From the NCBI RefSeq assembly GCF_022267515.1, contig NZ_JAKFGB010000012.1:893225-957224 (forward strand): a DNA stretch of 64,000 bases, written 5' to 3'. The notes under the pieces were generated by a model, which saw nothing but the letters and a program-made list of their open reading frames with translations, was not told the DNA's origin and made no database searches. Position numbers and translations under genes: made by a program. This DNA comes from Rubinisphaera margarita. Its GTDB lineage: Bacteria; Planctomycetota; Planctomycetia; Planctomycetales; Planctomycetaceae. Numbering within the stretch: position 1 is the first letter of the stretch; each line of letters opens with the position of its first letter. Of the stretch, positions 4,551-43,470 are shown piece after piece.

Positions 4551-4561
4551 TTGCCTGCCTT

Positions 4562-5446
4562 ATGCCCAAGCTTGCCGCCTTCCCCAAAGCCTACATGCAG
4601 GCCCTCTGTAAAGAGGGCACGATGACCGTCTCGGAGTGGATTGACCTTGCCGCCGATCTTGATGTCGATGGCCTCGAATGGTACGCCGGCTTCCTCGAAA
4701 TGGAGGACGAGTCGAACTGGCCGAAGTTTCGCGAACAGGTTGAAGCGATCGGCAAGACCATTCCCATGATGTGCTGCTCGCCTGACTTCACTCATCCCGA
4801 CGCTTCATTTCGTGAGCGGGAGATCGAGAAGCAGAAGCGATGGATCGATATGACGCACGTCCTCGGCGGCAGCTACTGCCGCGTCCTCAGCGGACAACGA
4901 CGCCCGGAACTTTCGATCAACGAAGGCGTCGCACTAGCCGCGGCATCGATCGAGGCCTGCCTCCCCTACGCCGAAGAGAGAAACGTGACGTTGATTCTCG
5001 AGAATCATTACAAGGACGATTTCTGGGAGTACCCCGAGTTCGCCCAGAAGATGGACGTCTTCTGCCTGCTCGTCGATGCGATTCAGCATCCGAACTTCGG
5101 CGTGAACTACGATCCCAGCAACACCTACCTGGCGGGCGAAGATCCACTCGAACTGCTGAAGCGGGTCTCACATCGGGTTCTGACGATGCACGCCAGCGAT
5201 CGATACCTGATTGAAGGCACGATCGAAGATTTGCGTCGCGAAGAAGGAGGCTCAGCCGGCTACGCCAAACGCCTCCGCCACGGCGAAATCGGCCAGGGCC
5301 TCAATGACTACGATGCCATCTTCGACGAACTCCGCGGAAAGGGCTTCAACGGCTGGATCAGCATCGAAGACGGCGTGGACGGCATCGACCAGCTGAAACG
5401 GAGCGTTTCGTTTCTACGGAAGAAGATAGTCGAGCACTGGGGATAA
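4562..5446 (+). CDS. Sugar phosphate isomerase/epimerase (xylose isomerase-like TIM barrel; UlaE/SgbU-like)
   Basis: The ORF track extends upstream in a frame that overlaps the ADH gene; the first ATG after the ADH stop is at 4562 (MPKLAAF...). Xylose-isomerase-like TIM barrel residues. Confidence 0.7.
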   Translation: MPKLAAFPKAYMQALCKEGTMTVSEWIDLAADLDVDGLEWYAGFLEMEDESNWPKFREQVEAIGKTIPMMCCSPDFTHPDASFREREIEKQKRWIDMTHVLGGSYCRVLSGQRRPELSINEGVALAAASIEACLPYAEERNVTLILENHYKDDFWEYPEFAQKMDVFCLLVDAIQHPNFGVNYDPSNTYLAGEDPLELLKRVSHRVLTMHASDRYLIEGTIEDLRREEGGSAGYAKRLRHGEIGQGLNDYDAIFDELRGKGFNGWISIEDGVDGIDQLKRSVSFLRKKIVEHWG

Positions 5447-5516
5447 CCGCACCGCGGGCAACAGTCGGCACGCAGCCGAACCGTCCGAACGGGGCGGCTG
5501 GAATCGGTGTCCTTGT

Positions 5517-6191
5517 GTGGACGTATGGCCCATCAAACCTCCTGCTCAATTGGATGACAACGTGTATATCCCCTCCTCGTTTGAGGTCGACGATTCTGAA
5601 ACGCTGCATGAGTTCATTGAGCGGTACAGTTTTGCGACGTTGATCACGACGGTCGACAGTGTGCCCTTTGCCACTCACCTTCCGCTGCTTCTTGACCGGA
5701 CCGCAGGCCCGTTCGGCACACTCCATGGGCATTTTGCGAAGGCGAATCCGCACTGGAGAAGCCTCGAGCAGTCCGGCGAATCGCTGGCGATTTTTCACGG
5801 GCCGCACACCTATGTTTCGCCGCGATGGTATTCAGGGGCGAAGCCAGCTGTGCCGACCTGGAACTACGCCGTCGTCCATGCCTACGGCACGGTCACATTG
5901 CAAACCGAGCCGGCGTGGCTCGATGACTTTCTGAGGCGAATGGCGATCAAATACGAAGCCGACGCCGACCAGCCGTGGCAGAACGATCTCCCCCCGGATC
6001 TCGACGACCAGCTGAAGCAGGCGATCGTCGGATTTGAAATGACCGTTACTCGACTTGAAGGGAAGTTCAAACTCGGCCAGAATCGCTCGGATGAGGATCA
6101 GCTCGGTGTGATTGCCGGACTGGATCAGGCCGGTCTTACTGAGATGGCCACGTTCGCGAGAGAACATCTCGACGCCAATCCGGACGATTGA
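5517..6191 (+). CDS. PaiB-family FMN-binding putative transcriptional regulator
   Basis: GTG start. Length and motifs (TWNYAVVHAYG, FMN-binding split-barrel) fit the PaiB family. Confidence 0.65.
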   Translation: MDVWPIKPPAQLDDNVYIPSSFEVDDSETLHEFIERYSFATLITTVDSVPFATHLPLLLDRTAGPFGTLHGHFAKANPHWRSLEQSGESLAIFHGPHTYVSPRWYSGAKPAVPTWNYAVVHAYGTVTLQTEPAWLDDFLRRMAIKYEADADQPWQNDLPPDLDDQLKQAIVGFEMTVTRLEGKFKLGQNRSDEDQLGVIAGLDQAGLTEMATFAREHLDANPDD

Positions 6192-6255
6192 CGCCCTGTG
6201 CGGTCTGTCTTCTCGGCTGAAAACTTCGCGCTCATTTTTCCCGCGGGACACCACA

Positions 6256-7125
6256 ATGCAGGGGCTTGAATCACTTCGCCAGCCGGACTTGCTGATCGCG
6301 TTCGCGGTCATGCTGGTAGCGTCGCTGGTCTGTTTCGGCCTTGGCTACTTCATCGCCGGGCGACTGACGCGTCGCGGACGCCCCCTCTTCCTGAGTCTGG
6401 TGCTGATCATGGGGGCAATCTGGTTTCTTTGGATCCAGGACGCCCCGTGGTTAATCGAGGTACTGCAAACCAGAAACGTGATTCTATACGGGAACTGGCT
6501 CAGCCTGTTTGCCGGACTGGGAGCGGGGACCGCGTTTCGCTCGATTCCTGGTTCCCTTGCTCGGCGGAGTGTGAACGCGGGTGTCTTCTTTCTGCTCGGG
6601 ATCGTCAGCCTGCTCCATCCGCTATGGGGTGATGTTCCTGTCTCGCGAAATGTCCCTGTGACCAACGGGATCTGTTTCCAGACCAGCGACGTCACCTGTT
6701 CCCCGGCCTGTGCCGCAACGGTTTTGTTGCAGCACGAGATCCCGGCAACCGAAGCCGAGATGATTCAGCTGTGTCTGACGAGAAAAGGAACGGCATGGCA
6801 GGGGCTTTATCGGGGGTTGGCACTCAAAACGGAAGGGACTCCCTGGCGGGTCGAAGTCTTCCACGGCGATTACGAAGATCTCAAGTCACTCACCCCCGGC
6901 TGGATCATTCTCAGCGTCGGTCTGCCGCAGTTCGGTGAGATCCCCAGTGTCTACGAAGACGACTATGGCTGGCGTCGGGGCGATCTGCACAGCGTCATCC
7001 TCCGAGAATTCAAAGAGGATGGCTATGTCTTGATGGTCGACCCCGACGTCGGCGAAGAGGCTTGGGCGCAGGATGATCTCAAGCTGCTGTACCGTGGCTT
7101 CGGCATGCGACTGGTGCCACGATAA
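6256..7125 (+). CDS. Membrane protein (4 predicted TM helices) with a C-terminal peptidase C39-like cysteine peptidase domain
   Basis: Start taken at MQGLESL, downstream of the ORF-track start. The motif QTSDVTCSPACAATVLL resembles the C39 catalytic Cys motif (Q..ECG.ACLAM). A His-containing segment lies downstream. Confidence 0.5.
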   Translation: MQGLESLRQPDLLIAFAVMLVASLVCFGLGYFIAGRLTRRGRPLFLSLVLIMGAIWFLWIQDAPWLIEVLQTRNVILYGNWLSLFAGLGAGTAFRSIPGSLARRSVNAGVFFLLGIVSLLHPLWGDVPVSRNVPVTNGICFQTSDVTCSPACAATVLLQHEIPATEAEMIQLCLTRKGTAWQGLYRGLALKTEGTPWRVEVFHGDYEDLKSLTPGWIILSVGLPQFGEIPSVYEDDYGWRRGDLHSVILREFKEDGYVLMVDPDVGEEAWAQDDLKLLYRGFGMRLVPR

Positions 7126-7159
7126 CCACCTGCGTTCAACGGTTTGAGACGGTGACGAC

Positions 7160-8431
7160 TTAGGCGTCGAGAGTCCAGCGGGCCTGACGCAAAACGGCGT
7201 GATGCCCGTTGCCGATGCCTTCGTACCAGACCGTCAACAGTGTGCCGTCATCGAGTTCGACCGTGCTGGGGTATCCCAGATCGCCGCCTGGTCCGTCATC
7301 GGAAATCGTGATCGGTTCGCACCAGCTATGACCGCAATCGGTGCTGACGCGAGCGAGATTTCCGTACGGCTTTCGACGATAGCCGTAGCTCATGAGCAGT
7401 CGTCCGTCTCGGAGTCGCGTGAGAAACGAGGGGAAGCCCCAGACGCCGATCGCTTTGGGTTCCGACCAGGTTTGACCACCATCGCTGGACTCGCTTTGAA
7501 GCGTCGCACTGGCGTCGACTTTGTTGTGGTTGCGGATATGGACAATGATTCGACCATCAGTCGCTTCGACGGCATGCAATTCGTGATAGGCTCCGGGATC
7601 ATCGCCGCTGCGCGTCGGAATCTCCGCCAGCCAGGACCAGGAGAGGCCATCGTCCTCAGAGACGCAGACGCCGATTCTTTTCGATCCGTTCCACAGTTCT
7701 TTCCCTGCATAAAGCAATCGGCCGTCCGAGAGTTCGATGGGCCCGTGCGGGCTGTTGACGATGGTCGGATATCGCTCTGACCAGGTTAGCCCACCATCGG
7801 TCGACCGGATCATCCATTCTCCCAGTTCCTGCTGTCGCTGTTCATCCGAGAGGCGGTTGTGGGCGGCCATCCACTGCTTCAGGCGTTTTTTCGGCCAGGG
7901 TTTGACCTTTTTCTTCTCCTTCTCGTCGTCATCCTGTTCCAGTTCCTGCTCTTCAGCGTTTGTCTTGTTCTTCTTTTTGTTTTTCTTCTCGGAGATTCGT
8001 TCCAGCTCCGCGTTGAGCAGCGGTTCGTAAGCCAGTGAAGTGAACGTCGTCACAAGCAATGTTCCGCGCGACGTTTCGAGAATGCCCGCATCCCGGTCGT
8101 CGATGGCTCCGTCGAGAATTGTTCGGGGCCAGGTCCAGGTTTCGCCATTGTCGTTTGATCGCATCATCTGCACAGCCCCGAACGGACAGACGTGCCCGCC
8201 CCGGTCTCCCGACCAGACAACGATCAGCTCCCCATTGGTTCGGCGTGTAACAGTCGGCCAGCCACAATAGCCCTTCGGGCCAGTGGTAATCGTTTTGATG
8301 TCCCGGGGGCTGCATGGTTCGCCTGCCCGGCTGGGGAGCGGATTGATGAGCGAAACCGTGCCGGCGACCGATGTGCCGAGGAATGTGCGGCGAGTGACGC
8401 GACCAAAAGAAGTTTCAGAGCGATTCTGCAT
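7160..8431 (-). CDS. Tat-secreted BNR/Asp-box sialidase-like glycoside hydrolase with a Lys/Glu-rich insertion
   Basis: Twin-arginine signal (RRTFLGTSVAG). Five Asp-boxes (SNDNGETW, STDGGLTW, SEDDGLSW, SSDGGQTW, STDCGHSW). A ~60-aa charged low-complexity insert (EKKNKKKNK...EKEKKKVKP) is present. Confidence 0.7.
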   Translation of the reverse strand: MQNRSETSFGRVTRRTFLGTSVAGTVSLINPLPSRAGEPCSPRDIKTITTGPKGYCGWPTVTRRTNGELIVVWSGDRGGHVCPFGAVQMMRSNDNGETWTWPRTILDGAIDDRDAGILETSRGTLLVTTFTSLAYEPLLNAELERISEKKNKKKNKTNAEEQELEQDDDEKEKKKVKPWPKKRLKQWMAAHNRLSDEQRQQELGEWMIRSTDGGLTWSERYPTIVNSPHGPIELSDGRLLYAGKELWNGSKRIGVCVSEDDGLSWSWLAEIPTRSGDDPGAYHELHAVEATDGRIIVHIRNHNKVDASATLQSESSDGGQTWSEPKAIGVWGFPSFLTRLRDGRLLMSYGYRRKPYGNLARVSTDCGHSWCEPITISDDGPGGDLGYPSTVELDDGTLLTVWYEGIGNGHHAVLRQARWTLDA

Positions 8432-8478
8432 CGGCGTCTTCTCCTCGTATTCATGAAAGGGAATGAAGTGTATCGACT

Positions 8479-9111
8479 TTAAAACAGCGTCCGTCGCTTC
8501 TGGTTGAATTCCACAAGCACGTCCGGTCCGGCCGGATGGAGCAGGCCTGCCAGCGGTTCCCTGTCGATGACATCGGGACTCAACCAGCGGGTCTGGTCTT
8601 CAAAGCTGGTTAGAACGATCGGCATGCGGTGGTGCCCGACACTGGCGATCAGCGGGTTTGGTTCGGTGGTGAGGAACGTGTACGACTCCACCGTTTCTTC
8701 GTCGTTACGCCAGCGTTCCCACAGTCCGGCGAACGCGAATGGCTCTCCACTCGGCTGGGCGAACCAGTGCTCTTTCTCATCGAAGCGAAGAACGGGGATT
8801 AGACAACGGCGGGACTTGAAAGCGGCTCGATACGTCGGCTTTTCGTGCACCGTTTCGGAGCGGGCGTTGAAGCACTGCCGCTGGAACGATTTGCGGGACT
8901 TTGACTTCGCGGAAGGCTTCCACCATGGAGGAAGCAGGCCCCATTGCATCGGCACAAGTTCGCGTTCGCCATCGGCATCGAGACGAACGACCGGTCCCAT
9001 CGAGAGCGGGTAGAGATCCTGATCGAAGTCGTCGTGGCATTCATTGCGGACGACATCGAAGATCTCGGCGAGCATGGCCGGGCTGACATTGACGTTGTAT
9101 CGATGGCACAT
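8479..9111 (-). CDS. SOS response-associated peptidase (SRAP; YedK/HMCES family abasic-site DNA-protein crosslink enzyme)
   Basis: N-terminal MC (Cys2), and ARSETV / RRCLIP motifs. Starts 36 nt downstream of dnaE2 on the same strand. Confidence 0.85.
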   Translation of the reverse strand: MCHRYNVNVSPAMLAEIFDVVRNECHDDFDQDLYPLSMGPVVRLDADGERELVPMQWGLLPPWWKPSAKSKSRKSFQRQCFNARSETVHEKPTYRAAFKSRRCLIPVLRFDEKEHWFAQPSGEPFAFAGLWERWRNDEETVESYTFLTTEPNPLIASVGHHRMPIVLTSFEDQTRWLSPDVIDREPLAGLLHPAGPDVLVEFNQKRRTLF

Positions 9112-9147
9112 CCCACTATTGAACTCGATTGACGCGGTCTTCGCAAT

Positions 9148-12100
9148 TCAGCTGAAGTCTCGCGACTTGCCGATGCGGGAGAATTCTTCCGACAAATCCC
9201 ACATGCGATCGACGACCACGTGCACGACCGACGACTCCCGCTGGAGAATTCCACGGACCATCATCGCGGTCGCCGTGCGAGCCGTGACGCGGAAGCGTTC
9301 CCAGGTGTTGGGATGCACGACGAGATTGGTGATGCCGGTTTCGTCTTCCAGCGTCATGAAGGTAATCCCTTTGGCGGTTCCCGGTCGCTGTCGCAACAGG
9401 ATCAACCCGGCGACTTTCACTTTGCGATCAGCGGGGTACGTTTCCAGAGCGGCGGCCGGAAGAGCTTTCATCTGTTTCAAACGCGAACGAATGAATGAAA
9501 CCGGATGGCGTTTGAGCGTCAGTCCGGTGTGACGATAGTCGTGCACCACTTCCGCCAGCGGAGCCATTCCCGGCAATGCTTTCGGAAGAGCGTCATTCGA
9601 TTGCGATTCGAGCAGGGTTTGCGTGAAACGTTCCGGCAACGATTCCCACAGCGCTTCGCGGCGGCTCAACTTGAGCGATCCAAACGCGTCGGCTCGGGCC
9701 AGTCGGGAGAGCACGCTGTTAGAAACGCCGGCCCGGTTGGCGACATCATCGATACTGAGGTAAGGCCGATCTCCCCGAGCCGCGACAATCTTCTCGGCTT
9801 CGCTCTGTTTCAGACCACTCACCATGCGGAAACCGAGCCGGACCGATCGATGTCTGGCGCTGGGTTTCTGCTCCAGTGTGCAGTCCCAGTCGCTGGAGTT
9901 GACATCAACTCGCCGAATTTCAACGCCATGCTCGCGAGCATCCCGGACAAGCGTGGCCGGCTGATAGAACCCGAGCGGCTGGCTGTTGAGCATCGCTGCC
10001 AGAAAGACATCGGGATAGTGACACTTCAGCCAGGAAGAAACATAAACCAGCAGCGCGAAGCTGGCCGCATGCGATTCTGGGAAACCGTATTCGCCAAAGC
10101 CGCGAATCTGGTTGAAGAGCCGCTCGGCAAACTCTTCGCTGTAACCGCGAGCCTGCATTCCCTGACTCAGCTTCTGATGAAAAGCATCCATCACTCCCGA
10201 CTTTCGCCAGGCCCCCATGGCCCGTCGCAATTGGTCGGCTTCGCCCGGCGTGAAGCCGGCCGCCACCACGGCGAGTTTCATCGCCTGTTCCTGAAAGATC
10301 GGTACGCCGAGTGTGCGATGCAGCACCTGCCGCACTTCTTCACTGGGATACTCGACCGCTTCCAGTCCATCCCGTCGTCGTAAATAGGGATGGACCATGT
10401 CTCCCTGAATCGGCCCGGGGCGGACCAGCGAAACTTCGATGACGAGATCGTAGAACTCTTTCGGCTTGAGCCGGGGAAGCATGCTCATCTGAGCCCGGCT
10501 TTCAATCTGAAAGACGCCGATCGTGTCGGCTCTTTGCATCATTTCATAAGTCGCCGGATCTTCCGCCGGCACTGTCGCCAGAGTCAACGGACGTTGATAA
10601 TGCCGTTCCAGAAGATCGAAGCACTTTCGCACGGCGGTGAGCATGCCGAGTGCCAGACAGTCGACTTTGAGGATGCCGAGAGCGTCGAGATCATCCTTGT
10701 CCCATTCCACGACCGTCCGTCCAGGCATCGAAGCATTCTCGATTGGCACGATCTCGCAGAGGGGACTGTTGGTCATCACCATGCCGCCCGTGTGCTGCGA
10801 CAGATGCCGGGGGAAGCCGAGGATGTCGATGACAAGCCGGTGTATCAGCTGGCCGAGACCGGAGTCCGGAGACAGCCCCGCTTCCTCCATTCGCCGGCCG
10901 ACCTTATTCACTTCGTTGTACCGTTCGAAGTTCTTCGCGAGCCGATCGATGCTGTCGAGTGAGAGTCCGAGCGCTTTGCCGACATCCCGCATCGCCGATT
11001 TGAGACGGTAGGTAATGAGCGTGGCTGTCATCCCGGCTCGTTCGCGGCCGTATTTCTCGTAGATGTACTGCAGCACTTCTTCGCGGCGTTCGTGCTCGAA
11101 GTCGATGTCGATATCGGGAGCTTCATCGCGTTCTTTGGATATGAAGCGTTCGAACAGCACATCGATGCGAGCCGGGTCGACCGAAGTGACGCCGAGGCAA
11201 TAACAGACGGCGGAGTTGGCGGCTGACCCGCGCCCCTGACAGAGAATGTCTCGGCTGCGGGCGAAGCGGACGAGATCGTACACCGTCAGGAAGTAGGCTT
11301 CGTAATGGAGCTCGGAGATCAATTCGAGTTCATGCTCGACGAGTTGTCGGACGTTGTCCGGGATGCCGTCCGGGTAACGTTCCGCAGCTCCCTGCCAGGT
11401 GAGTTCGTTCAGATACTGCGAGACCGTGAGGCCGGGCGGGCAGAGTTCTTCGGGATATTCGTAACGGAGTTCATCGAGCGAGAACTGGCAGCAATCGGCA
11501 ATGGCAGCCGTGCGACGAATCAACTCGGGATGACTTCCGAAGTGAGACTGCATCTGCTGTGGCGATTTGAGGTATCGTTCCGCGTTGGGAAACATCCGCA
11601 GTCCGAGGTCGGCGACGGCACAACGATGGCGGGTGGCGGTCAGCACATCCTGCAGGACGCGACGGCCGGGCACGTGATAGTAAACATCGTTGGAAGCGGC
11701 GGGGAGAACGCCGGCGGCTTTCGCGGTCTGCAGCTGCTCGGCCAGCAGATAGTCATCCCGATCGGTCAGATGGCGATGGGCCAGTCCGTAACAGCGATCC
11801 CCATAGAGTTCCCGGTAACGGATCAGATCGTCGACACTGCAGTTGACGGTCGACTCCGTCGGCCGGGCCAGCAGCGGGACACAGGCAATCAGATCGGCGG
11901 AGAACTCGGTCAGGTCCCGGAATCGAAGTTCACAACTCCCCTTCTCTGCCCGGGTGCGGCCGCGGGTGATGAGCCGACATAACTGACTGTAACCATTCCG
12001 GTTCATGCAGAGCAGAACAACAGGCGGAGCATCGACCGGAGTAATCTCGGCTCCAATCAGCAGCTTGAGGCTGGCCTGTTTCGCGGCCACATGAGCCCGA

Positions 12101-12336
12101 ACAACCCCGGCGAGCGTGTTGCGATCGGTGATTGCCATCGCCCGGTAGCCAAGTTCGGCCGCTCGTTCGACCAGCTCATCCGGATGCGAGGCTCCCTCCA
12201 GAAACGAGAAGTTCGACTTGCACTGCAGTTCGGCAAACGGCAGCGCGCGGTCTTCCCGCGATCCGGCCCGCTGAGCATGAATCTCGGGGTGAACCTGTCG
12301 AGCTTTCTCAAAGGCGAGTTCGGGCATTCGGGGCAA
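9148..12336 (-). CDS. dnaE2: Error-prone DNA polymerase III alpha subunit DnaE2
   Basis: 1062 aa with PHP domain and polymerase core motifs. Operon context imuA-imuB-dnaE2. Confidence 0.9.
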   Translation of the reverse strand: MPRMPELAFEKARQVHPEIHAQRAGSREDRALPFAELQCKSNFSFLEGASHPDELVERAAELGYRAMAITDRNTLAGVVRAHVAAKQASLKLLIGAEITPVDAPPVVLLCMNRNGYSQLCRLITRGRTRAEKGSCELRFRDLTEFSADLIACVPLLARPTESTVNCSVDDLIRYRELYGDRCYGLAHRHLTDRDDYLLAEQLQTAKAAGVLPAASNDVYYHVPGRRVLQDVLTATRHRCAVADLGLRMFPNAERYLKSPQQMQSHFGSHPELIRRTAAIADCCQFSLDELRYEYPEELCPPGLTVSQYLNELTWQGAAERYPDGIPDNVRQLVEHELELISELHYEAYFLTVYDLVRFARSRDILCQGRGSAANSAVCYCLGVTSVDPARIDVLFERFISKERDEAPDIDIDFEHERREEVLQYIYEKYGRERAGMTATLITYRLKSAMRDVGKALGLSLDSIDRLAKNFERYNEVNKVGRRMEEAGLSPDSGLGQLIHRLVIDILGFPRHLSQHTGGMVMTNSPLCEIVPIENASMPGRTVVEWDKDDLDALGILKVDCLALGMLTAVRKCFDLLERHYQRPLTLATVPAEDPATYEMMQRADTIGVFQIESRAQMSMLPRLKPKEFYDLVIEVSLVRPGPIQGDMVHPYLRRRDGLEAVEYPSEEVRQVLHRTLGVPIFQEQAMKLAVVAAGFTPGEADQLRRAMGAWRKSGVMDAFHQKLSQGMQARGYSEEFAERLFNQIRGFGEYGFPESHAASFALLVYVSSWLKCHYPDVFLAAMLNSQPLGFYQPATLVRDAREHGVEIRRVDVNSSDWDCTLEQKPSARHRSVRLGFRMVSGLKQSEAEKIVAARGDRPYLSIDDVANRAGVSNSVLSRLARADAFGSLKLSRREALWESLPERFTQTLLESQSNDALPKALPGMAPLAEVVHDYRHTGLTLKRHPVSFIRSRLKQMKALPAAALETYPADRKVKVAGLILLRQRPGTAKGITFMTLEDETGITNLVVHPNTWERFRVTARTATAMMVRGILQRESSVVHVVVDRMWDLSEEFSRIGKSRDFS

Positions 12337-12496
12337 TCAGTGGTGCAGGTCAGGTATTTATAAGGATGGCCCAGAGATTCATCTCTGAGTGACGAAGTCA
12401 CAAGCGGTTTGTCTTCGATCTGTTTTCAGTCAGTCCAGGTACGTGATTGCCGGCCTTTGTTGCGGGCGCGGGACTTACAGCAACGAGAGTTTTGCC

Positions 12497-12628
12497 GGGT
12501 AGCCCCGGTTGCTCCGCTACCGGGGCCGACGCAGTCGGCAAGAGGTTCCAACGATCAATTCAAATTGAAGGCGTGTTGATGGACCTCTTGTGGCTTCGCC
12601 ACCCCGGTTGAATCAACCGGGGCTACCC
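12497..12628. repeat. Nested inverted-repeat (long imperfect hairpin) element in the imuB-dnaE2 spacer
   Basis: Outer IR GGGTAGCCCCGGTTG (12497-12511) pairs with CAACCGGGGCTACCC (12614-12628). Inner IR CAAGAGGTTCCA / TGGACCTCTTG. Central palindrome TCAATTCAAATTGA. Two local hairpins share CCCCGGTTG. Confidence 0.6.
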
Positions 12629-12738
12629 CTTTGGCATGATTCATAATGTGAATTCACGAAGAGCGGTGAAGACAAGCCTCCTGTTGCTGCGCAACACAGA
12701 GATGAATCTCTGTGCCATCCCTTCGTGTCCTGCGGGGA

Positions 12739-14256
12739 TTAATCAAAGCAGCCGTGTAAGTACCAGTCGCGTTGTTCCCTTCTTCGAAAGAGCCAGAATC
12801 GCTGGTGGGTCGTGGTTTCGACGCGGTAGTAATCGCGGCGGATGGCATCGTCCCGCCACCAGCCGGTTTCAAGTCGTTCGGGGCCCCAGGTGATCTCGGC
12901 GATGTGTTCCTGTTGATCCCACCAGAACCGCAACGGCGGACCGTTCGGGATCACGGAATTCACCCGGATGGCGATCGGCTCGGAGAACAGTGACAGCGGC
13001 CGTAGCGGGCGGGAGAAGAGGGATTCGTTCTTTCGCACCGCCATCGGAGGTTCCAGAGCCGGGGTGAAACTCACGCTCCGTTCGGGCTGGACGTCTTCGA
13101 CCAGTTCCGCTTTCAAGACCGCCTGATCGCCGAGACGCGTGGTGAGTCGGTTGATGAGTGTTTCGTACTCGCGGGTTTCGATCGTCGAATCGTCTTCGAA
13201 CAACGTGCGGCGACGAAAGCGGAGCGATGCAGTTTCCGCGGCTCGCAGCACAACGCGGTCAATCTCGACACGCAGCTGCATGGTCTCCAGCTTGAGAGCG
13301 ATCAGGTTCCACAGCTCCTGCTCGGCCAGTGTGGGGCGGATTGTGCCGAGAGTCAACTCGAGTACAGGTTCCTTCCCGTTAAACAGCTGAACCTGCAGTC
13401 GTAACAGGCCGTGCTGCTGCTTCTCCAGTTGAGCCAGCAAATCCTGAAGCACCCGTTTCAGCACAATCTCGATGAGATACTTCTCGGTGATCGGATACTC
13501 GAGAACTTCATCGGTCCAGACCGGTTCGGGCAACACTTCCGGAACGAGGACTTCGGTTCGGTGACCCTGGAACTGTTCGAGTCGCGCAGGAAGTTCCTCG
13601 CCAAACCGGGGCTTCAACGATTCTCGCGGCAGCCGGAGAATCTGGTCGATCTCTTTCAGATCAAACTCCCGCAGTCGAGCGGACAGAGCGTCCGAAAGGC
13701 GCAGCGCTTCCACCGGCAGTCGTGGTGAGGACTTCTGGGAATCGACGATCTGAAAACTGTTCGAGCGATGGACGCCGTAATGAGCCACGCCCCACGCCAT
13801 GCCAACCGTATCAGCAATGGCGATGCGGCCTGCGAGTCCACGATCGTTGAGGAACGTGATTAGCTGGCGACAGAACTCTCGCTCGCTGCCATACAGATGA
13901 ATGCAGCCGGTCAGATCGAACAGCAGGCTGTCGAGCGGAGGTGTTTCTTCAATGCCGACAATGGGGCTGAAGCACTGGCAGGCGATCGCCAGTCGGCGGA
14001 GCGCGTGGTAATCGCGAGCCGGACTGGCTTCGAGAATCTGCACCGGCTGCGACCAGCGAAGTTTGGCATCGGTGAGCGGCATGCCCGTGCGGATGCCTTC
14101 CCGGGCAAGATCGGCGGAAGTCTGAACGACCACCTCGCCAACGCGGGCCAGCTTCTCGAAGAACAGCAGCGGAGTTCGTTTATGCTCGGGCTTGTCCTGG
14201 CGGTAACATTGAATGGACCAGCGGGGGAGCCACAGGCAGGCGATGCGTCTTGTCAT
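12739..14256 (-). CDS. imuB: ImuB, Y-family polymerase-like component of the mutasome
   Basis: N-terminus MTRRIACLWLPRW matches the ImuB pattern. ~505 aa. Overlaps imuA by 77 nt. Confidence 0.85.
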   Translation of the reverse strand: MTRRIACLWLPRWSIQCYRQDKPEHKRTPLLFFEKLARVGEVVVQTSADLAREGIRTGMPLTDAKLRWSQPVQILEASPARDYHALRRLAIACQCFSPIVGIEETPPLDSLLFDLTGCIHLYGSEREFCRQLITFLNDRGLAGRIAIADTVGMAWGVAHYGVHRSNSFQIVDSQKSSPRLPVEALRLSDALSARLREFDLKEIDQILRLPRESLKPRFGEELPARLEQFQGHRTEVLVPEVLPEPVWTDEVLEYPITEKYLIEIVLKRVLQDLLAQLEKQQHGLLRLQVQLFNGKEPVLELTLGTIRPTLAEQELWNLIALKLETMQLRVEIDRVVLRAAETASLRFRRRTLFEDDSTIETREYETLINRLTTRLGDQAVLKAELVEDVQPERSVSFTPALEPPMAVRKNESLFSRPLRPLSLFSEPIAIRVNSVIPNGPPLRFWWDQQEHIAEITWGPERLETGWWRDDAIRRDYYRVETTTHQRFWLFRRREQRDWYLHGCFD

Positions 14257-38100: not shown

Positions 38101-38460
38101 ATGAACGCACTCTCATTCCGATTACTTAGCAGCCTGCTGGCGATCCCGCTGGCTTTCGCGTTTGTGTCGCCGGTCGAAGCTCAGGAGACGTACACCGAAG
38201 AGTACTACGACTCGTACTACGACGACGCTGACAATTACGACTACGACTACAACGACTACACCTGGAACGACTGGTGGGAAGACGATTACGAGTACGGCTA
38301 CTACGGCGATGATGACTACGCCTATGACGACGACTACTACGAAGACTACCGCGACGATGAGTACGGTTGGAACGACGACTGGTGGGAAGATGATTACGCC
38401 TACGCCGACGGGTACTACGACAACTACTACGACGGCGACACCTGGTGGGACTGGGAATAG
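38101..38460 (+). CDS. Secreted, extremely acidic Asp/Tyr/Trp-rich low-complexity protein
   Basis: AAGGAG Shine-Dalgarno sequence 7 nt before the ATG. Cleavable signal peptide (…PVEA/QE). The mature ~93 aa are almost entirely D, Y, W, E, N, G and show a two-fold ~33-aa repeat. Confidence 0.5.
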   Translation: MNALSFRLLSSLLAIPLAFAFVSPVEAQETYTEEYYDSYYDDADNYDYDYNDYTWNDWWEDDYEYGYYGDDDYAYDDDYYEDYRDDEYGWNDDWWEDDYAYADGYYDNYYDGDTWWDWE

Positions 38461-38518
38461 TCTCTGCCCCGTGTGCCAGAACGCTCCAATGACATCAAAA
38501 GCAAAAGGAATATCAACG

Positions 38519-39649
38519 ATGCTTCTACGTAATCCAAACCTTGTGGCCGCATTCGGCCTCTCCGCCCTGCTCGCCATGCCGGTTCATGCTCAGCAGGCTC
38601 CGCGCGAGCAGAATCGTGATCGCCAGAACGAGTCGAGCCAGCAGGAATCTCGGCCCGGCGATCAGCAGAACAGCGAGCGTCAGTCCGATCGCTTCGAGAA
38701 CCAGAACCGGGAGGACCGCGACAGCGAATCCCGAACCGACGAGAACCAGAATCAGCGACAGCTGCGCAATCAGCATCGTCAAAGCGAGAACGACAATCGC
38801 CGGCAAGGCTACACCGGTCAGCGACGATCGAACTTCCGTGGCGGTGAGATTGAAGGCTGGGTCACTGTCGGCACCGACTACGACAACGACGGCGTCTACG
38901 ACTCGCTCGAAACGATCTTCCTGATCGATTTGGAGAATGCACGTCGTCAGAGTCAGGCTCGCGCTCAGGAACATCAGCGCAGCCGTAATCAGAACGGTCA
39001 GCATCAGAGTTCGAAACGCCTTCAGGTGAAAGGGACGATTCAAAGTCTCTCCCAGAAGGAGATGATGAACTCAGAGAAGCCGAAAGTTGTCGCGAAGCTG
39101 AAAACCCAGGAAGGTCGAACCGCGACCGTCTGCCTCGGTTCGCAGGACAAAGTGAACCAGCTGAATCTGCAGCAGGGTGATCAGGTCCAGGCCCACGGCG
39201 TTCGCGCCACCTTCAACGGTAAATCGATGCTGATGGCGGAACGCGTTTCGGCCGGCGAGCAGACAATCACGAACCAGCTGCCGCGAAAGCAGGGGCTCAA
39301 CCGCTTTCAGGGCGAAGTCGTGAGCACACGACAGGCGAACTTCCGGAATCGCGAAGGCGAATTCGTGATCGCCACCGTTCGCACTGAGAAGCATGGCACC
39401 AAGGAAGTGAACCTCGGACATGCCAGCGAATTTGAGAATGTCGACATCAGCGAAGGAAAGCAGATCAAATTCCTCGCCGGTGAAGCACGGATGAACGGTC
39501 GCTCGGCTCTGATTGCTCAGGCAATTCGCATCGACGGTCAGACCATCGACGTCCGCGAGTCGACCAACCAGCAGATCACTAAGTCTGATCGCGGTTCCGA
39601 CTCGAAGAACCGTCAGTCCGAGGATCGGCAGACGACAAGTCGCCGATAA
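38519..39649 (+). CDS. Secreted protein with a Q/N/R/E/S/D-rich low-complexity N-terminal region and two tandem ~90-aa OB-fold-like repeats
   Basis: AAAGGA Shine-Dalgarno sequence before the ATG at 38519. Signal peptide MLLRNPNLVAAFGLSALLAMPVHA. The two repeats share a pattern of the form V...G..V...L...G.... Confidence 0.5.
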   Translation: MLLRNPNLVAAFGLSALLAMPVHAQQAPREQNRDRQNESSQQESRPGDQQNSERQSDRFENQNREDRDSESRTDENQNQRQLRNQHRQSENDNRRQGYTGQRRSNFRGGEIEGWVTVGTDYDNDGVYDSLETIFLIDLENARRQSQARAQEHQRSRNQNGQHQSSKRLQVKGTIQSLSQKEMMNSEKPKVVAKLKTQEGRTATVCLGSQDKVNQLNLQQGDQVQAHGVRATFNGKSMLMAERVSAGEQTITNQLPRKQGLNRFQGEVVSTRQANFRNREGEFVIATVRTEKHGTKEVNLGHASEFENVDISEGKQIKFLAGEARMNGRSALIAQAIRIDGQTIDVRESTNQQITKSDRGSDSKNRQSEDRQTTSRR

Positions 39650-39678: not shown

Positions 39679-39713
39679 GGCGTCCGTCCTGTCCGGGGGC
39701 GGACGCCTTTTTG
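39679..39713 (+). terminator. Intrinsic terminator after the secreted-protein gene pair
   Basis: Stem GGCGTCCG / CGGACGCC followed by TTTTT. Confidence 0.65.
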
Positions 39714-41472: not shown

Positions 41473-41604
41473 AACCGGCCTCCTTTCGACCTGAGTGGAC
41501 GAAGTGCGCAGACTCCCGTGTCATCAGATCACGGAATCAAACGTCAGCCTGCGCGAGCAGTCGACTCAGCAGCATCGGCTCGGTTCTTCGAGCCTTGTGA
41601 AAAT

Positions 41605-41708
41605 TCACTCGACGAAGGCATGAAGCAGAGTTACCGACCAGAGTCGATCCCGGCCGGGCAGGAGTTGAACCTGCGGAGTCCATGTATTCCGCTTCCGCAG
41701 TCGAGTGA
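41605..41708 (-). ncRNA. Y-RNA-like / tRNA-like structured element immediately upstream of rsr
   Basis: A 9-bp terminal helix (TCACTCGAC / GTCGAGTGA) encloses a canonical T-arm (GCAGG-TTCAACT-CCTGC) and further hairpins. No anticodon arm or acceptor stem. Confidence 0.35.
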
Positions 41709-41739
41709 GGTCCCCGACGAGGGGTTTGCCAGAGCATTT

Positions 41740-41936
41740 GTTCTTTGCGCGTCTACTGTTTCCGCCACGGCGTCCGAAGACGCCGGCAGGATTCGCACCT
41801 GCACGATCTTGCGATCACAAAGTCCTGATGGAGTCCAACATTCAGTCGGGGAATGTCAAAGCATGATCGACGAAGTGGTGGTTCAGAGTCGTTACGGTGC
41901 TCTACCTTTGAGCTACGGTGCGTCGTAAGAAAAAAT
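41740..41936 (-). ncRNA. Structured RNA region carrying isolated tRNA-like modules
   Basis: On the minus strand: a D-arm-like TAGCTCAAAGGTAGAGCA; a cUUCGg tetraloop hairpin (GGCGTC-TTCG-GACGCC); and a degenerate T-arm GCAGG-TGCGAAT-CCTGC. Confidence 0.3.
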
Positions 41937-42010
41937 GGCACCGACGGGAATCGAACCCGCAACCTCCGGATCCCAAATCATGTACTCCGAGCCGGCAGTC
42001 GATCATGTCT
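41936..42010 (-). ncRNA. Degenerate tRNA-like element (T-arm plus 3' acceptor strand only, followed by a T-tract)
   Basis: GCGGG-TTCGATT-CCCGT-CGGTGCC-A-TTTTTT. No matching 5' acceptor strand upstream; CGGTGC can pair with a downstream GCACCG. Confidence 0.3.
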
Positions 42011-42211
42011 GCTATGTCTTCAAAAGTGGCTCGACGAAGAGGTGCCGAGAAGATGCGTTCTTCACGCAATCCTTAACAGGGATGTAATCCCGGCTGGCAG
42101 TCGAACCACTGGAGCAGTTCACTCTCGTAACCGTTCCGTCCGCGAAAGGAGCAGCGTTTCAGGCGAAACAAAGCTCATTCGCGGACATCCGGTAAAGCGA
42201 TCCGCTTTAAT

Positions 42212-42282
42212 ACCCCGCCAAGGAATCGAACCTCGTCCGACTGATTCGAAGTCAGTCATGCATCCATCACACCCGCAGGGCT
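42212..42282 (-). tRNA. tRNA-Arg (UCG), 71 nt, no encoded CCA
   Basis: Acceptor GCCCTGC / GCGGGGT (two G-U pairs). D-arm GTGT-GATGGAT-GCAT. Anticodon arm ACTGA-CTTCGAA-TCAGT. T-arm CGAGG-TTCGATT-CCTTG. Confidence 0.6.
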
Positions 42283-42291
42283 TGCAGAGTT

Positions 42292-42624
42292 TCAGTTTTT
42301 CGTTGTTCTCCAATACTCGTCGGCGTTCTCCAGAGCCGCCCGCATCAGACGGGATCCTTCGATGTTGGCCGAGTGAATTGTCCAGGTTAGTTGCGATAAC
42401 TCGCCGTAGTAGGCTCGTTCTTCAATCCATTTCGCGACGTCGTAACCGGTTTGCGTTGTTCCCAGATCGTGATCCAGTGACACCCAGGCGACGTTGTTCG
42501 ACTTGAGCCGACTGATCGCCGCATCTGCAGTCCTCACCCAGATCATGCCCGGTTCCGCACCGAACAGTTCCTGGATCTTCCGATTGTTCGGATCCCGCTC
42601 GTCATCGAGCCAGAGATTGATCAT
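42292..42624 (-). CDS. Small receiver (REC)-fold-like protein embedded in the tRNA array; possibly a cyclic-phosphate-processing receiver-like domain as seen in RNA-repair neighbourhoods
   Basis: AAAGGA Shine-Dalgarno sequence 5 nt before the ATG. Alternating beta/alpha pattern with acidic residues at predicted strand ends: MINLWLDDER (strand 1) and VAWVSLDHDLG (strand 3). Confidence 0.5.
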   Translation of the reverse strand: MINLWLDDERDPNNRKIQELFGAEPGMIWVRTADAAISRLKSNNVAWVSLDHDLGTTQTGYDVAKWIEERAYYGELSQLTWTIHSANIEGSRLMRAALENADEYWRTTKN

Positions 42625-42651
42625 GCAGTCCTTTCTTCAGGTCGCGAGAAA

Positions 42652-42721
42652 CACGAGCGTGAGGAGTCGAACCCCATGCGTTCGCTTTGGAGGCGAACTG
42701 CTCTCCCAGGAGCACACTCGT
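42652..42721 (-). tRNA. tRNA-Trp (CCA), 70 nt, slightly irregular (short D-loop, missing nt 9)
   Basis: Acceptor ACGAGTG / CGCTCGT. D-arm GCTC-CTGGGA-GAGC. Anticodon loop CTCCAAA is identical to bacterial tRNA-Trp. T-arm TGGGG-TTCGACT-CCTCA. Confidence 0.55.
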
Positions 42722-42725
42722 CCAA

Positions 42726-42799
42726 TGGCTTTGGTGGGATTCGAACCCACAGCATCGCTGTGTCTGAGACAACGTGGTCTACCGATTGCCTACAAAGCC
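42726..42799 (-). tRNA. tRNA-like element with a CAG anticodon loop (Leu-like) but an unpaired D-stem and no long variable arm; probable pseudo-tRNA
   Basis: Perfect acceptor GGCTTTG / CAAAGCC and T-arm GTGGG-TTCGAAT-CCCAC. Anticodon arm GTTGT-CTCAGAC-ACAGC. No D-stem pairing can be found. Confidence 0.4.
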
Positions 42800-42831
42800 G
42801 TTTCGTGCCCACTGTTGTTGAGGGACATCAG

Positions 42832-42906
42832 TTGCGGCGGCAGGAATCGAACCTGCGTCAGAACGGTTCAGAGCCGCCCGCCCGTACCAGCACGAGCACC
42901 ACCGCA
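42832..42906 (-). tRNA. tRNA-Gln (CUG), 75 nt
   Basis: Acceptor TGCGGTG / CGCCGCA. D-arm GCTC-(10 nt)-GGGC. Anticodon arm GGCGG-CTCTGAA-CCGTT. T-arm GCAGG-TTCGATT-CCTGC. Confidence 0.55.
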
Positions 42907-42918
42907 TCATCTCTTCAA

Positions 42919-42989
42919 AGCGCCCAGCGGGAGTCGAACCCGCACTCCCGCCATGGCAAGGCAGCAGGCTACCGCTACATCATGGGCGC
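42919..42989 (-). tRNA. tRNA-Gly (GCC), 71 nt
   Basis: Acceptor GCGCCCA / TGGGCGC. D-arm ATGT-AGCGGTA-GCCT (one mismatch). Anticodon arm CTGCC-TTGCCAT-GGCGG. T-arm GCGGG-TTCGACT-CCCGC. Confidence 0.55.
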
Positions 42990-43013
42990 GATTCAGAGGC
43001 TTCGCCTCCTGAA

Positions 43014-43086
43014 TGGGATCGGACGGATTCGAACCGTCACCGTTCCGGTTAAGAGCCGGACATGCCGCCGCTAACACCTCAATCCC
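43014..43086 (-). tRNA. tRNA-Lys (CUU), 73 nt
   Basis: Acceptor GGGATTG / CGATCCC. D-arm GTGT-TAGCGGCG-GCAT. Anticodon arm TCCGG-CTCTTAA-CCGGA. T-arm GACGG-TTCGAAT-CCGTC. Confidence 0.65.
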
Positions 43087-43110
43087 AGGTTGACCTTCTT
43101 CGTAATAAAG

Positions 43111-43183
43111 TCGGGATGGCCGGACTCGAACCGACGATCGCGTGCTCCCAGGGCACGTGGGGTAGCCGCTCCCCGACATCCCG
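43111..43183 (-). tRNA. tRNA-Pro (UGG), 73 nt (C at position 33)
   Basis: Acceptor CGGGATG / CATCCCG. D-arm GGGG-AGCGGCTA-CCCC. Anticodon arm CGTGC-CCTGGGA-GCACG. T-arm GTCGG-TTCGAGT-CCGGC. Confidence 0.6.
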
Positions 43184-43397
43184 TTAACTGCTTTCACTTA
43201 ATGGAGCTGTAAACTCCGAGTAACTCTCGATCGAAAGCGGTTGAGTTCTTTGCTGAGTGCCTGCCGGCATTAGCCTGTCCGCGTTCGATCGGAGCCGGGC
43301 GGAATGCATGTCCGAAGAAGGCGAAGAAACGTCGATACGAATTGCGGATGAAGGTTGTCACGGTCGTCGATTCCGAAATGGGCTGACTGTTTACTGA

Positions 43398-43470
43398 TGA
43401 CCCGTGTGGGATTCGAACCCAACCTGACCAGCTTGAAAGGCTGGTGACCTCACCAGAAGTCGAACGGGCC
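43398..43470 (-). tRNA. tRNA-Glu (UUC), 73 nt
   Basis: Acceptor GGCCCGT / ACGGGTC. D-arm GACT-TCTGGTGA-GGTC. Anticodon arm CCAGC-CTTTCAA-GCTGG. T-arm TTGGG-TTCGAAT-CCCAC. Confidence 0.65.

Follow-up and report, generated by a model that had tools for sequence, protein, structure and literature searches.

The minus strand of a 64,000-nucleotide (nt) stretch of the Rubinisphaera margarita genome (contig NZ_JAKFGB010000012.1, positions 893,225 to 957,224; hereafter the window) carries five head-to-tail RNA units at positions 42110-41490 (~620 nt), directly 5′ of rsr, which encodes a Ro60 orthologue. The units are four conserved structured RNA genes (Y1 to Y4) and one degenerate copy (Y5), homologues of the bacterial Y RNA YrlA that have a common stem and differ in their apical modules. 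The explanation that fits best, and in which we have high confidence, is a tandem Y RNA family of four clear genes and one decayed copy placed 5′ of rsr. Taken singly, Y1 to Y4 are each likely to be Y RNA genes on the evidence of their sequence, and Y5 may be one, with the chances slightly against it. The family appears to be a divergent, unannotated planctomycete lineage of a known RNA family and not tRNA debris.

The original prediction had described degenerate, isolated tRNA modules between a tRNA array and rsr and had proposed that they might be YrlA-type Y RNAs. All of the modules that it listed exist on the minus strand upstream of rsr, at or near the positions given, and a covariance model built without the window (R1, described below) places four units far beyond chance (Table 1). 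They are not isolated, however, being parts of tandem units that each have their own 5′/3′ terminal helix. The proposed span of 41605-42010 covers Y2 to Y4 and misses the two outermost units, and the word degenerate fits Y5 and not the other four. The YrlA-type reading itself gained computational support from the neighbouring rsr gene, a match to the YrlA model, covariation and a variant of the YrlA stem; the compensatory base changes in homologous loci on which the proposal had been made to depend were found.

Table 1. Positions of the RNA units and neighbouring features in the window. R1 and R2 are covariance models described in the text.
Feature	Positions	Strand	Evidence
Y1, candidate short Y RNA-like hairpin, about 82-86 nt	42025..42110	-	R1 41.2 bits, E 3e-08; R2 52.0 bits, E 3e-12
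Y2, candidate YrlA-type Y RNA, about 145 nt	41862..42007	-	R1 137.7 bits, E 3.5e-31; R2 52.5 bits
Y3, candidate second tRNA-like Y RNA paralogue, about 142 nt	41710..41853	-	R1 55.2 bits, E 1.5e-11; R2 24.6 bits
Y4, candidate Y RNA paralogue, 104 nt	41605..41708	-	R1 50.1 bits, E 2.4e-10; R2 45.0 bits
Y5, degenerate Y-like hairpin	41490..41570	-	R1 14.5 bits (filters off), E 0.00095 in 900-nt region
rsr, Ro60 orthologue, 545 amino acids	39835..41472	-	Pfam vWA_Ro60 4.5e-11 and TROVE 1.5e-7; PDB 2NVO
Eight same-strand tRNA genes (Glu, Pro, Lys, Gly, Gln, Leu, Trp, Arg)	42211..43470	-	ARAGORN, Rfam
cRec-domain open reading frame, 110 amino acids, between tRNA-Trp and tRNA-Arg	42292-42624	-	Pfam cREC_REC (PF20274) 3e-25
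Orphan 100-nt hairpin between tRNA-Arg and Y1; inner stem GUCCGCGAAUGAGC/GCUCCUUUCGCGGAC	42111..42210	-	Minimum free energy -49.3 kcal/mol, z -7.0

Five tandem units with a common stem

The units fill most of a 738-nt non-coding stretch of the minus strand between the tRNA array/cRec region and a 545-amino acid open reading frame (ORF). This ORF was assigned as rsr because of its Pfam vWA_Ro60 and TROVE matches and because its best solved-structure match is Rsr of Deinococcus radiodurans (2NVO, E 1.6e-19, residues 20-532); its product is the presumed protein partner of the RNAs. The gaps between units are only 1-34 nt, and the 3′ end of Y5 lies 18 nt from the rsr ATG, with the Shine-Dalgarno sequence of rsr outside the Y5 helix.

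Of ten copies of the octamer TCGACTGC in the window, four are on the minus strand within 41557-42104, and each of these four is followed 60-130 nt later by CTTCGTCGA or, in one case, by CTTCGTCCA. The sequences flanking the two motifs are complementary inside each pair and different among pairs (AGUGGU/GCCACU, CAUGA/UCAUG, UCAC/GUGA, CUGAG/CUCAG), and a fifth pair, CCCCGACUGAA...CCCCUCGUCGGGG, is located between the second and the third. The stem common to the units reads CGACUGCC..GGAGUACAU on its 5′ strand and CUCUG..CUUCGUCG on its 3′ strand, with a conserved asymmetric pattern of internal loop and stem (5′ CGAC-UGCC-GG-n-YGGAG-UACAU, 3′ CUCUGR-YC-AcnACUUC-GUCG). Over 186-193 planctomycete units its consensus is C(g)ACUGCCgguunGGAgUAcAu on the 5′ side and cucug..ca..aCUUCGUCG on the 3′ side, and the ACUGCC core is among the most conserved positions (186 units).

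This core holds the C that distinguishes the planctomycete stem from that of YrlA. The 5′-strand motif of YrlA is GNCGAAN0-1G (PMC4201824), also named the 'CGAA motif' (PMC12135203). In the planctomycete stem the second A of CGAA is replaced by a C, which pairs with a G of the 3′ strand, and that strand has one additional C. Judged by sequence, it is the same module as the Rsr-binding region of YrlA (CGAAUGC...CUUGUCG) in a one-base variant. Because CGAC replaces CGAA, the module was missed in the original prediction, which had found no Ro-binding helix, and is under-scored by Rfam. That negative holds for the GGUCCGA type, as the metazoan bulged helix GGUCCGA/UUGACU is present in no unit, and fails for the variant CGACUGCC/CUUCGUCG, which is present in every one. 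Outgroup loci from Myxococcota and Acidobacteriota have the canonical CGAAUGCC...CUUGUCG (in fuller form CGAAUGCCG...GGGACUACA / ...CUUGUCG) in one or two units, mostly downstream of rsr, and one of these loci (L058) exceeds the YrlA gathering score with 73.7 bits. The Rfam alignment places the 5′ motif of the window unit on UCGGAGU, 12 nt inside the real terminal helix; this placement was rejected because all units and ~190 homologues have CGACUGCC at the helix end.

The most complete unit is Y2, which the Rfam YrlA model (RF02553) matches end to end (model positions 1-114, 41867-41990 on the minus strand) with 47.6 bits and E 5.8e-9. On a terminal helix (CAUGAUCGAC/GUCGAUCAUG) and the stem module it carries a permuted tRNA-like domain consisting of a V hairpin, a T arm (41944-41960), a closed acceptor-like stem-loop (41916-41943) and a D arm (41899-41913). 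The T arm is GCGGGUUCGAUUCCCGU, the acceptor-like stem is CGGUGC..GCACCG and the D arm is GCUCAAAGGUAGAGC, with the D-arm-like sequence TAGCTCAAAGGTAGAGCA at 41898-41915. The strand CGGUGC (41938-41943), which follows the T arm and had been taken for an acceptor strand that lacked its 5′ partner, pairs with GCACCG on its 3′ side (41916-41921). Y2 also has an A15:U48-type tertiary pair, and its equivalent of position 55 is a U; the same position of Y3 is a G. The minimum free energy (MFE) fold of Y2 alone gave no tRNA-like arms, and the comparative structure was used in its place.

Y3 is built on the terminal helix UCCCCGAC/GUCGGGGA with the motif variants CGACUGAA and CCUCGUCG. It has the T arm GCAGGUGCGAAUCCUGC (loop UGCGAAU, 41786-41802), an acceptor-like hairpin with a UUCG loop (CGGCGUCUUCGGACGCCG, 41768-41785) and a 3-bp D-like stem, GCG/CGC, and its MFE fold gives the same arms. 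The T arm enclosed by a 9-bp helix that had been reported at 41605-41708 is Y4, with a helix of UCACUCGAC/GUCGAGUGA, the stem module and the T arm GCAGGUUCAACUCCUGC; one more stem-loop occupies the acceptor position, for which the earlier description had noted no stem, and there is no D arm. In Y1 a terminal helix (AGUGGUUCGAC/GUCGAGCCACU) and the conserved stem module support a small apical domain without tRNA-like arms. Y5 retains CGACUGC, CACUUCGUC and a terminal helix with one C.C mismatch; it is without the GGAGUACAU/CUCUG part, so that P2, the inner helix of the stem, and one pair of the terminal helix (P1) are lost. The MFE values are -35.9 kcal/mol for Y1 (z -4.25), -48.6 for Y4 (z -4.54) and -35.6 for Y5 (z -3.29), where z is relative to shuffled controls, so that these three units fold 3.3-4.5 standard deviations below the controls.

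The closest relative found of the locus (L001) is in a Planctomycetaceae metagenome-assembled genome (CP051247.1), a complete 6.1-Mb chromosome whose Rsr is 96% identical. Identity to this locus, which serves as a rough measure of constraint, is 97.6% for Y1, 94.4% for Y2, 91.7% for Y3, 85.7% for Y4 and ~96% for Y5, with 81.5% at the third codon positions of rsr. The changes include a compensatory U-A to C-G change in P1 of Y1 and a visible one in the T stem of Y2.

At gathering thresholds, Rfam found only tRNAs in the window, and YrlA appeared solely in a scan by E value. This permissive scan also gave weak matches of YrlA to Y4 (just 19.4 bits) and of YrlB (RF02565) to Y1 (42023-42110, 19 bits against a gathering score of 97, so that membership of that family is not supported). 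The Rfam Y_RNA model had no match in the region even at E up to 10, and neither ARAGORN nor the Rfam tRNA model detected a tRNA in 41490-42110.

Conservation and rsr linkage in other loci

For comparison, 62 rsr loci were taken from GTDB species genomes. A scan for CGA[AC][TC]G...CTT(N)G[TC]CG with flanks complementary over at least 4 bp found motif pairs almost only 5′ of rsr and on its strand. An alignment of 26 units of ~140 nt from other planctomycete genomes (A3, with the window and L001 excluded) was the basis of R1, and 31 short hairpin units from other genomes (A6) were the basis of the stem-only model R2. The architecture shared in A3 begins with P1, ending in CGAC/GUCG, an internal loop (5′ UGCC, 3′ ACnACUUC), P2 (GG-n-YGGAG/CUCUGR-YC) and UACAU, and continues with a short hairpin, T arm, closed stem-loop, D arm and a 3-bp closing helix. 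With this structure, which was drawn by hand, 96.0% of the cells of A3 are standard pairs, compared to 35-47% when the pairing is slid by 1-3 columns, and 21 pairs are changed on both sides compared to 6-10 in the slid controls, counts that ignore phylogeny; none of 500 shuffles reached the observed values. The T-arm, acceptor-like and D-arm helices all covary in the 26 homologues, and the equivalent of the Levitt pair, which joins D-loop position 15 to position 48 ahead of the T stem, is A:U in 15 sequences and G:C in all of the other 11, a compensatory pattern that has been reported for YrlA (PMC4201824). In the short class (A6), 89.4% are paired compared to 24-46% when slid. A separate observation concerns the hairpin 5′ of the T arm in YrlA-type units (A3 columns 29-39; window 41965-41979, minus strand), which is small, with 2-3 bp in its stem and 7 nt in its loop. 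The loop follows the pattern Y-U-N-N-N-R-N that marks anticodon loops, with a central triplet that varies (CUCAUAA, UUCAUAC and UUUGGGA are examples).

Applied to the 62 loci, R1 gave 208 matches at E <=1e-3, every one on the rsr strand, and together R1 and R2 recovered ~200 units on that strand in ~50 planctomycete loci. The number of units 5′ of rsr per planctomycete locus is 1-7, with a mode of 5. In the window, on both strands of the 64 kb, R1 had no full-length match beyond the units, the remainder being T arms of tRNAs and low-scoring tRNA overlaps, and R2 found nothing else below E 0.1.

The paralogues of the window belong to classes that recur across planctomycetes. The Y2 class is canonical and YrlA-like, ~140 nt long, and scores 120-149 bits on R1. 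The Y3 class has a T loop UGCRAAU, a short acceptor-like hairpin and a 3-bp D-like stem that changes between GCG/CGC and GUG/CAC, as seen in four loci (L031, L033, L040 and L061). The Y4 class, ~104 nt long and without a D arm, combines a T arm with one further stem-loop and was found in 19 loci, with compensatory change in 17 of its 27 predicted pairs. The Y1 class is a widespread plain hairpin of 66-87 nt in which the core pair is CGAC/GUCG or CAAC/GUUG in a ratio of 17:17. Sorting of the units by arm content with regular expressions mislabelled Y1, the flank of which reads GGUUCGA, and the class counts from that sorting are therefore approximate. Mean column identity of the homologous units is 56-63%, which together with the compensatory changes opposes an origin as recent copies of one mobile repeat.

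The linkage to rsr was also examined from the opposite direction, by searching metagenomes with the RNA motif. In 31 of 58 loci with at least 1.5 kb of downstream sequence, rsr is downstream on the same strand, at a median distance of 262 nt. Since the 17-base pattern has many chance matches, only metagenome loci confirmed by R1 were counted, and among the 36 with real units and enough flanking sequence rsr is downstream in 31. Of the 27 loci without rsr, 22 have no R1 match where the pattern starts and are most simply chance matches. The other five hold real R1 units with no rsr in the 1.8-11.6 kb downstream, so that the linkage is strong and not absolute.

These five loci are one of several observations that count against the assignment of the units as Y RNA genes. 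The published motif GNCGAAN0-1G is not literally present in the window, which reads (N)NCGACUG with C for the second A. The YrlA score of Y2, obtained over the full model, is under the gathering score of 69, and no planctomycete unit in ten loci reached that score. The neglect of phylogeny in the covariation counts, the Y5 results (no match by R2 and no useful score by R1) and the lack of any sigma-70-like promoter on the minus strand, in a scan that was not designed for planctomycetes, point in the same direction.

Alternative readings and the surrounding genes

An alternative is that the units, or at least the last one, are a cis-acting leader of the rsr mRNA, such that Rsr would bind a Y RNA-like stem in its own 5′ untranslated region and repress translation or alter mRNA stability, a form of autoregulation in which the leader mimics the RNA partner of Rsr. 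Its position is suggestive: Y5 leaves no room for a promoter before the ATG, and it is ~96% identical to its counterpart in the closest relative despite its poor match to the Y models, well above the third codon positions. Counted back from the A of the rsr start codon, the end of the last 3′ motif is 21-44 nt away (mostly 22-30) in 40 of the 53 planctomycete loci, and this interval usually consists of a U-rich spacer and then a Shine-Dalgarno sequence. The unit adjacent to rsr nevertheless varies in structural class among loci, scoring 27-139 bits on R1, so that the position is not tied to a dedicated leader; the Shine-Dalgarno sequence is outside the helix, and the Y RNAs 5′ of rsr in Mycobacterium smegmatis are processed from a common precursor and bound in trans (PMC4201824). 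We consider such a leader unlikely, and it would add to a trans role of Y1 to Y4, not replace it.

A still less probable reading is that the tRNA-like units act without Rsr, as decoys or sensors for anticodon nucleases and tRNA-targeting toxins, in an island for repair or counter-defence that is shared with phages. In many loci, and on viral contigs, the units border on tRNA arrays or are interspersed with their genes, the tRNA array of the window contains a cRec-domain ORF, and three large metagenome contigs have units that end tRNA arrays and no rsr within 1.8-5.6 kb. Against this, the most conserved part is a non-tRNA stem homologous to the Rsr-binding module, even in units without a tRNA-like arm, and rsr is directly downstream in 31 of the 36 informative metagenome loci and in nearly all genome loci; a viral contig (L064) has rsr too. 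Both the leader and the decoy readings would be additions to the Y RNA assignment rather than replacements.

It is very improbable that the units have no function of their own, whether as tRNA genes in decay, as pieces that a rearrangement of the tRNA array left behind, or as a generic repeat or terminator. They do adjoin the tRNA array and hold T- and D-arm sequences without a complete tRNA by ARAGORN or Rfam, and Y5 is degenerate. Against this, the non-tRNA helices (terminal helix and P2) are conserved and covary in dozens of genomes, T arm, closed acceptor stem and D arm keep their permuted order, with covariation of 15:48 in 26 of 26 units, R1 matches lie solely on the rsr strand beside rsr, and the units are more conserved than synonymous sites.

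Within the Y RNA assignment, the spacing of the genes suggests how they are expressed. The spacers of 1-34 nt and the 18 nt to the start codon indicate that the Y units are probably transcribed with rsr, which, with Y5 ending so close to its ATG, has no room for a promoter of its own 3′ of the Y array. The tRNA array is probably the 5′ part of the same transcription unit: on the minus strand no terminator-like site was found between 43508 and rsr, and a terminator-like hairpin (43532-43508) is directly ahead of the first tRNA of the array. Co-transcription of the tRNAs, Y RNAs and rsr thus appears likely from the spacing and from the precedents in D. radiodurans and M. smegmatis. The gene 3′ of rsr is probably the convergent plus-strand ORF 38162-39649, which is 90% identical in the closest relative compared to 65-76% for the overlapping minus-strand ORFs, and this would make rsr the last gene of its unit. 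A hairpin followed by T5 at 39679-39707, after this ORF, could terminate both it and rsr. No RtcB or other ligase or partner gene was found next to rsr, the ORFs downstream being without a Pfam match. The locus is surrounded by ordinary planctomycete chromosomal genes as judged by Pfam, among them one for a PSCyt1/PSCyt2/PSD1 protein; this protein and the related loci agree in pointing to a member of the Planctomycetota.

The cRec domain is a predicted 2′,3′-cyclic-phosphate phosphoesterase with links to RNA ligases (PMC7824862). The cRec ORF is kept in the closest relative at 94% identity; at E<=1e-5 no homologue was found in any of the remaining 61 loci. Among the tRNAs of the array, two are unusual: tRNA-Gln(CUG) (42831-42906, minus strand) matches the Rfam tRNA-Sec model with 32.1 bits, which is sub-threshold yet above its score on the tRNA model, and the atypical tRNA-Trp (42652-42721, minus strand) scores merely 31 bits. 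The orphan hairpin between the array and Y1 has a canonical-looking CGAAUG inside a stem-bulge-stem. It was considered as a sixth Y unit and rejected, as R1 gave 5.5 bits and neither Y model matches; it has no homologue among the 62 fetched loci, including the closest relative, in which an unrelated structured insert of ~330 nt is at the same site.

Large same-strand tRNA arrays are directly 5′ of the Y arrays in many planctomycete rsr loci and on one viral contig (L056 1719-4355, L054 1830-4363, L007 555-3589, L010 216-3434 and L065 8566-13057), with up to 31-32 tRNAs per 5-kb flank; L056 has 31. The last two genes of these arrays are usually Arg(GCG) and Cys(GCA), and a short Y unit begins only a few nt further on. 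In L050 (4387-4538) a 41.6-bit match of the Rfam tRNA model runs from the T arm of a Y unit into the D arm of the unit that follows. This is the inverse of the tandem-tRNA artefact of which Chen et al. (2014, PMC4201824) warned, and such matches are a possible source of false tRNA calls in Y arrays. Units of 114-127 bits end tRNA arrays on metagenome contigs of 61-250 kb (L082 5644-5946, L102 327-628, L144 2870-3014), and no Rsr homologue was found in the 1.8-5.6 kb available downstream. The motif is present on four IMG/VR contigs. In one of 162 kb (L064, UViG_3300047160_020099) the Y units are interleaved with tRNAs at 3934-9102 and a Rsr homologue of 44.5% identity is 1.2 kb downstream, and the viral-classified contig L065 has planctomycete-type Y units interleaved with tRNA genes at 8566-13132. 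The module of tRNAs, Y RNAs and rsr may have been exchanged between planctomycetes and their large phages.

Possible function and comparison with known systems

Given the co-transcription considered above, the Y RNAs and rsr, probably with the tRNA array, would form one precursor that is cut into RNAs of about 80-145 nt. A mechanism for these RNAs can be proposed by analogy with Xenopus laevis Ro60 and its Y RNAs, the D. radiodurans complex of Rsr, Yrn1 and PNPase, and Salmonella YrlA. Rsr is a ring-shaped protein, and each Y RNA would bind to the outside of the ring by its common stem, above all by the 5′ strand. The apical module of the RNA would control access to the Rsr cavity and link the protein to an effector. 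Candidate effectors are PNPase or another exoribonuclease and tRNA-recognising or RNA-repair enzymes, and the tRNA-like module could be read by proteins that recognise tRNA. Several paralogues might then provide several specificities, sending one Rsr to several tasks in RNA quality control and repair, a role that fits a locus that follows a tRNA array and a cRec gene.

A broader joint reading, which we offer as a speculation that we think more likely wrong than right, is that planctomycetes and some large phages have tRNA-Y RNA super-arrays. These would place up to seven paralogues per locus, of at least three conserved classes (full tRNA mimic, T arm only and bare stem, all with one lineage-specific Rsr-binding stem), at the tail of tRNA arrays that reach 30 or more genes, to be transcribed with them. 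The paralogues might tether a single Rsr ring to different effectors or, with cRec, sense tRNA damage or act as decoys in an island for RNA repair or counter-defence, and the copy next to the rsr start codon might in addition be an autoregulatory Rsr site in the mRNA leader.

It is already known that several Y RNAs can be beside rsr and that they can be co-transcribed with a tRNA. Three features appear not to be described in the literature that we searched: the stem variant of planctomycetes, a conserved repertoire of three or four structural classes that amounts to as many as seven copies per locus, and the fusion to large tRNA arrays. The search returned no paper in which Planctomycetes, Ro60 and Y RNA occur together; planctomycete YrlA candidates may be listed in the species tables of Chen et al. 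(2014). As for annotation, Rfam at the gathering score finds no Y RNA in the window or in the ten planctomycete loci tested, and R1 and R2 define a planctomycete version of the presumed Rsr-binding stem. To our knowledge, bacterial Y RNAs have been studied in just three species. CGAC is a natural variant one base away from CGAA with both strands conserved, and it would allow a direct test of which nucleotides Rsr reads; likewise, one stem on three or four apical modules per locus offers a simple system for the role of the tRNA-like module. The tight linkage to large tRNA arrays and to cRec supports the proposed role of Rsr and Y RNAs in tRNA or RNA repair. Current views are extended to a new phylum and none is overturned, and specialists will not be surprised.

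The nearest known RNA is YrlA (RF02553). This Y RNA resembles a tRNA and occurs in Salmonella Typhimurium, in M. smegmatis and in over 250 further bacteria and phages (Chen et al., 2014, PMC4201824), and a structure is available (6CU1; bioRxiv 10.1101/312249). Y RNAs of its kind are bound by Rsr/Ro60 in vivo and need it to accumulate, and YrlA is modified by tRNA enzymes, with pseudouridine 55 made by TruB and dihydrouridine by DusA. Y2 resembles YrlA in the terminal stem, the asymmetric internal loop with a 5′ CGA-type motif, the 7-bp helix and a permuted tRNA domain, in which V is followed by the T arm, then by the closed acceptor-like stem-loop and last by the D arm; the T- and D-loop nucleotides are conserved and 15:48 covaries. 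As in YrlA loci, the units are on the strand of rsr and within about 4 kb of it. The domain is complete in Y2 and variant in Y3, lacks its D arm in Y4 and is absent as a whole from Y1. The differences are that GNCGAAN0-1G is replaced by the motif CGACUGCC, with a Watson-Crick C-G pair at the fourth base, and the 3′ strand CUUCGUCG in place of CUUGUCG, with both strands of the stem strongly conserved. Y2 is also one among four or five paralogues, not one of two, and it is 5′ of rsr as in M. smegmatis and D. radiodurans, whereas the units are 3′ of rsr in Salmonella and, for the most part, in the outgroups. Compared to YrlB, Y1 and the 66-87-nt class are similar in being plain hairpins with only the Rsr-binding-type stem beside a tRNA-like Y RNA, but Y1 is not a member by sequence and its stem is the planctomycete variant.

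There are published precedents for several Y RNAs, one of them tRNA-like, that adjoin rsr and are processed from a common precursor, which includes a tRNA in D. radiodurans (PMC4201824). The rsr locus of D. radiodurans (Yrn1, Yrn2 and RNAs a, b and d) likewise has tandem small RNAs 5′ of rsr, some with T arms only. The Deinococcus RNAs keep a metazoan-like GGUCCGA-type helix and have their tRNA-like parts oriented otherwise, whereas in the window every unit has the YrlA-type module and the units come after an array of several tRNAs. Phage Ro60 loci (mycobacteriophages and Yrl1/Yrl2 of Thermus phage phiLo; PMC12135203) have at least two CGAA-type Y-like RNAs immediately 5′ of the Ro60 gene, and the viral contig L064 combines planctomycete-type units, tRNAs and rsr; the window locus is chromosomal, as is that of its relative on a complete chromosome. 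The permuted arm order and closed acceptor-like stem set the units apart from tRNA genes, as they have neither the open-acceptor cloverleaf nor an anticodon arm. With metazoan Y RNAs they have in common a modular logic, with Ro60 bound at the terminal stem and effectors at a distal module that varies; the metazoan RNAs have no tRNA-like domain, and the window has no GGUCCGA/UUGACU helix.

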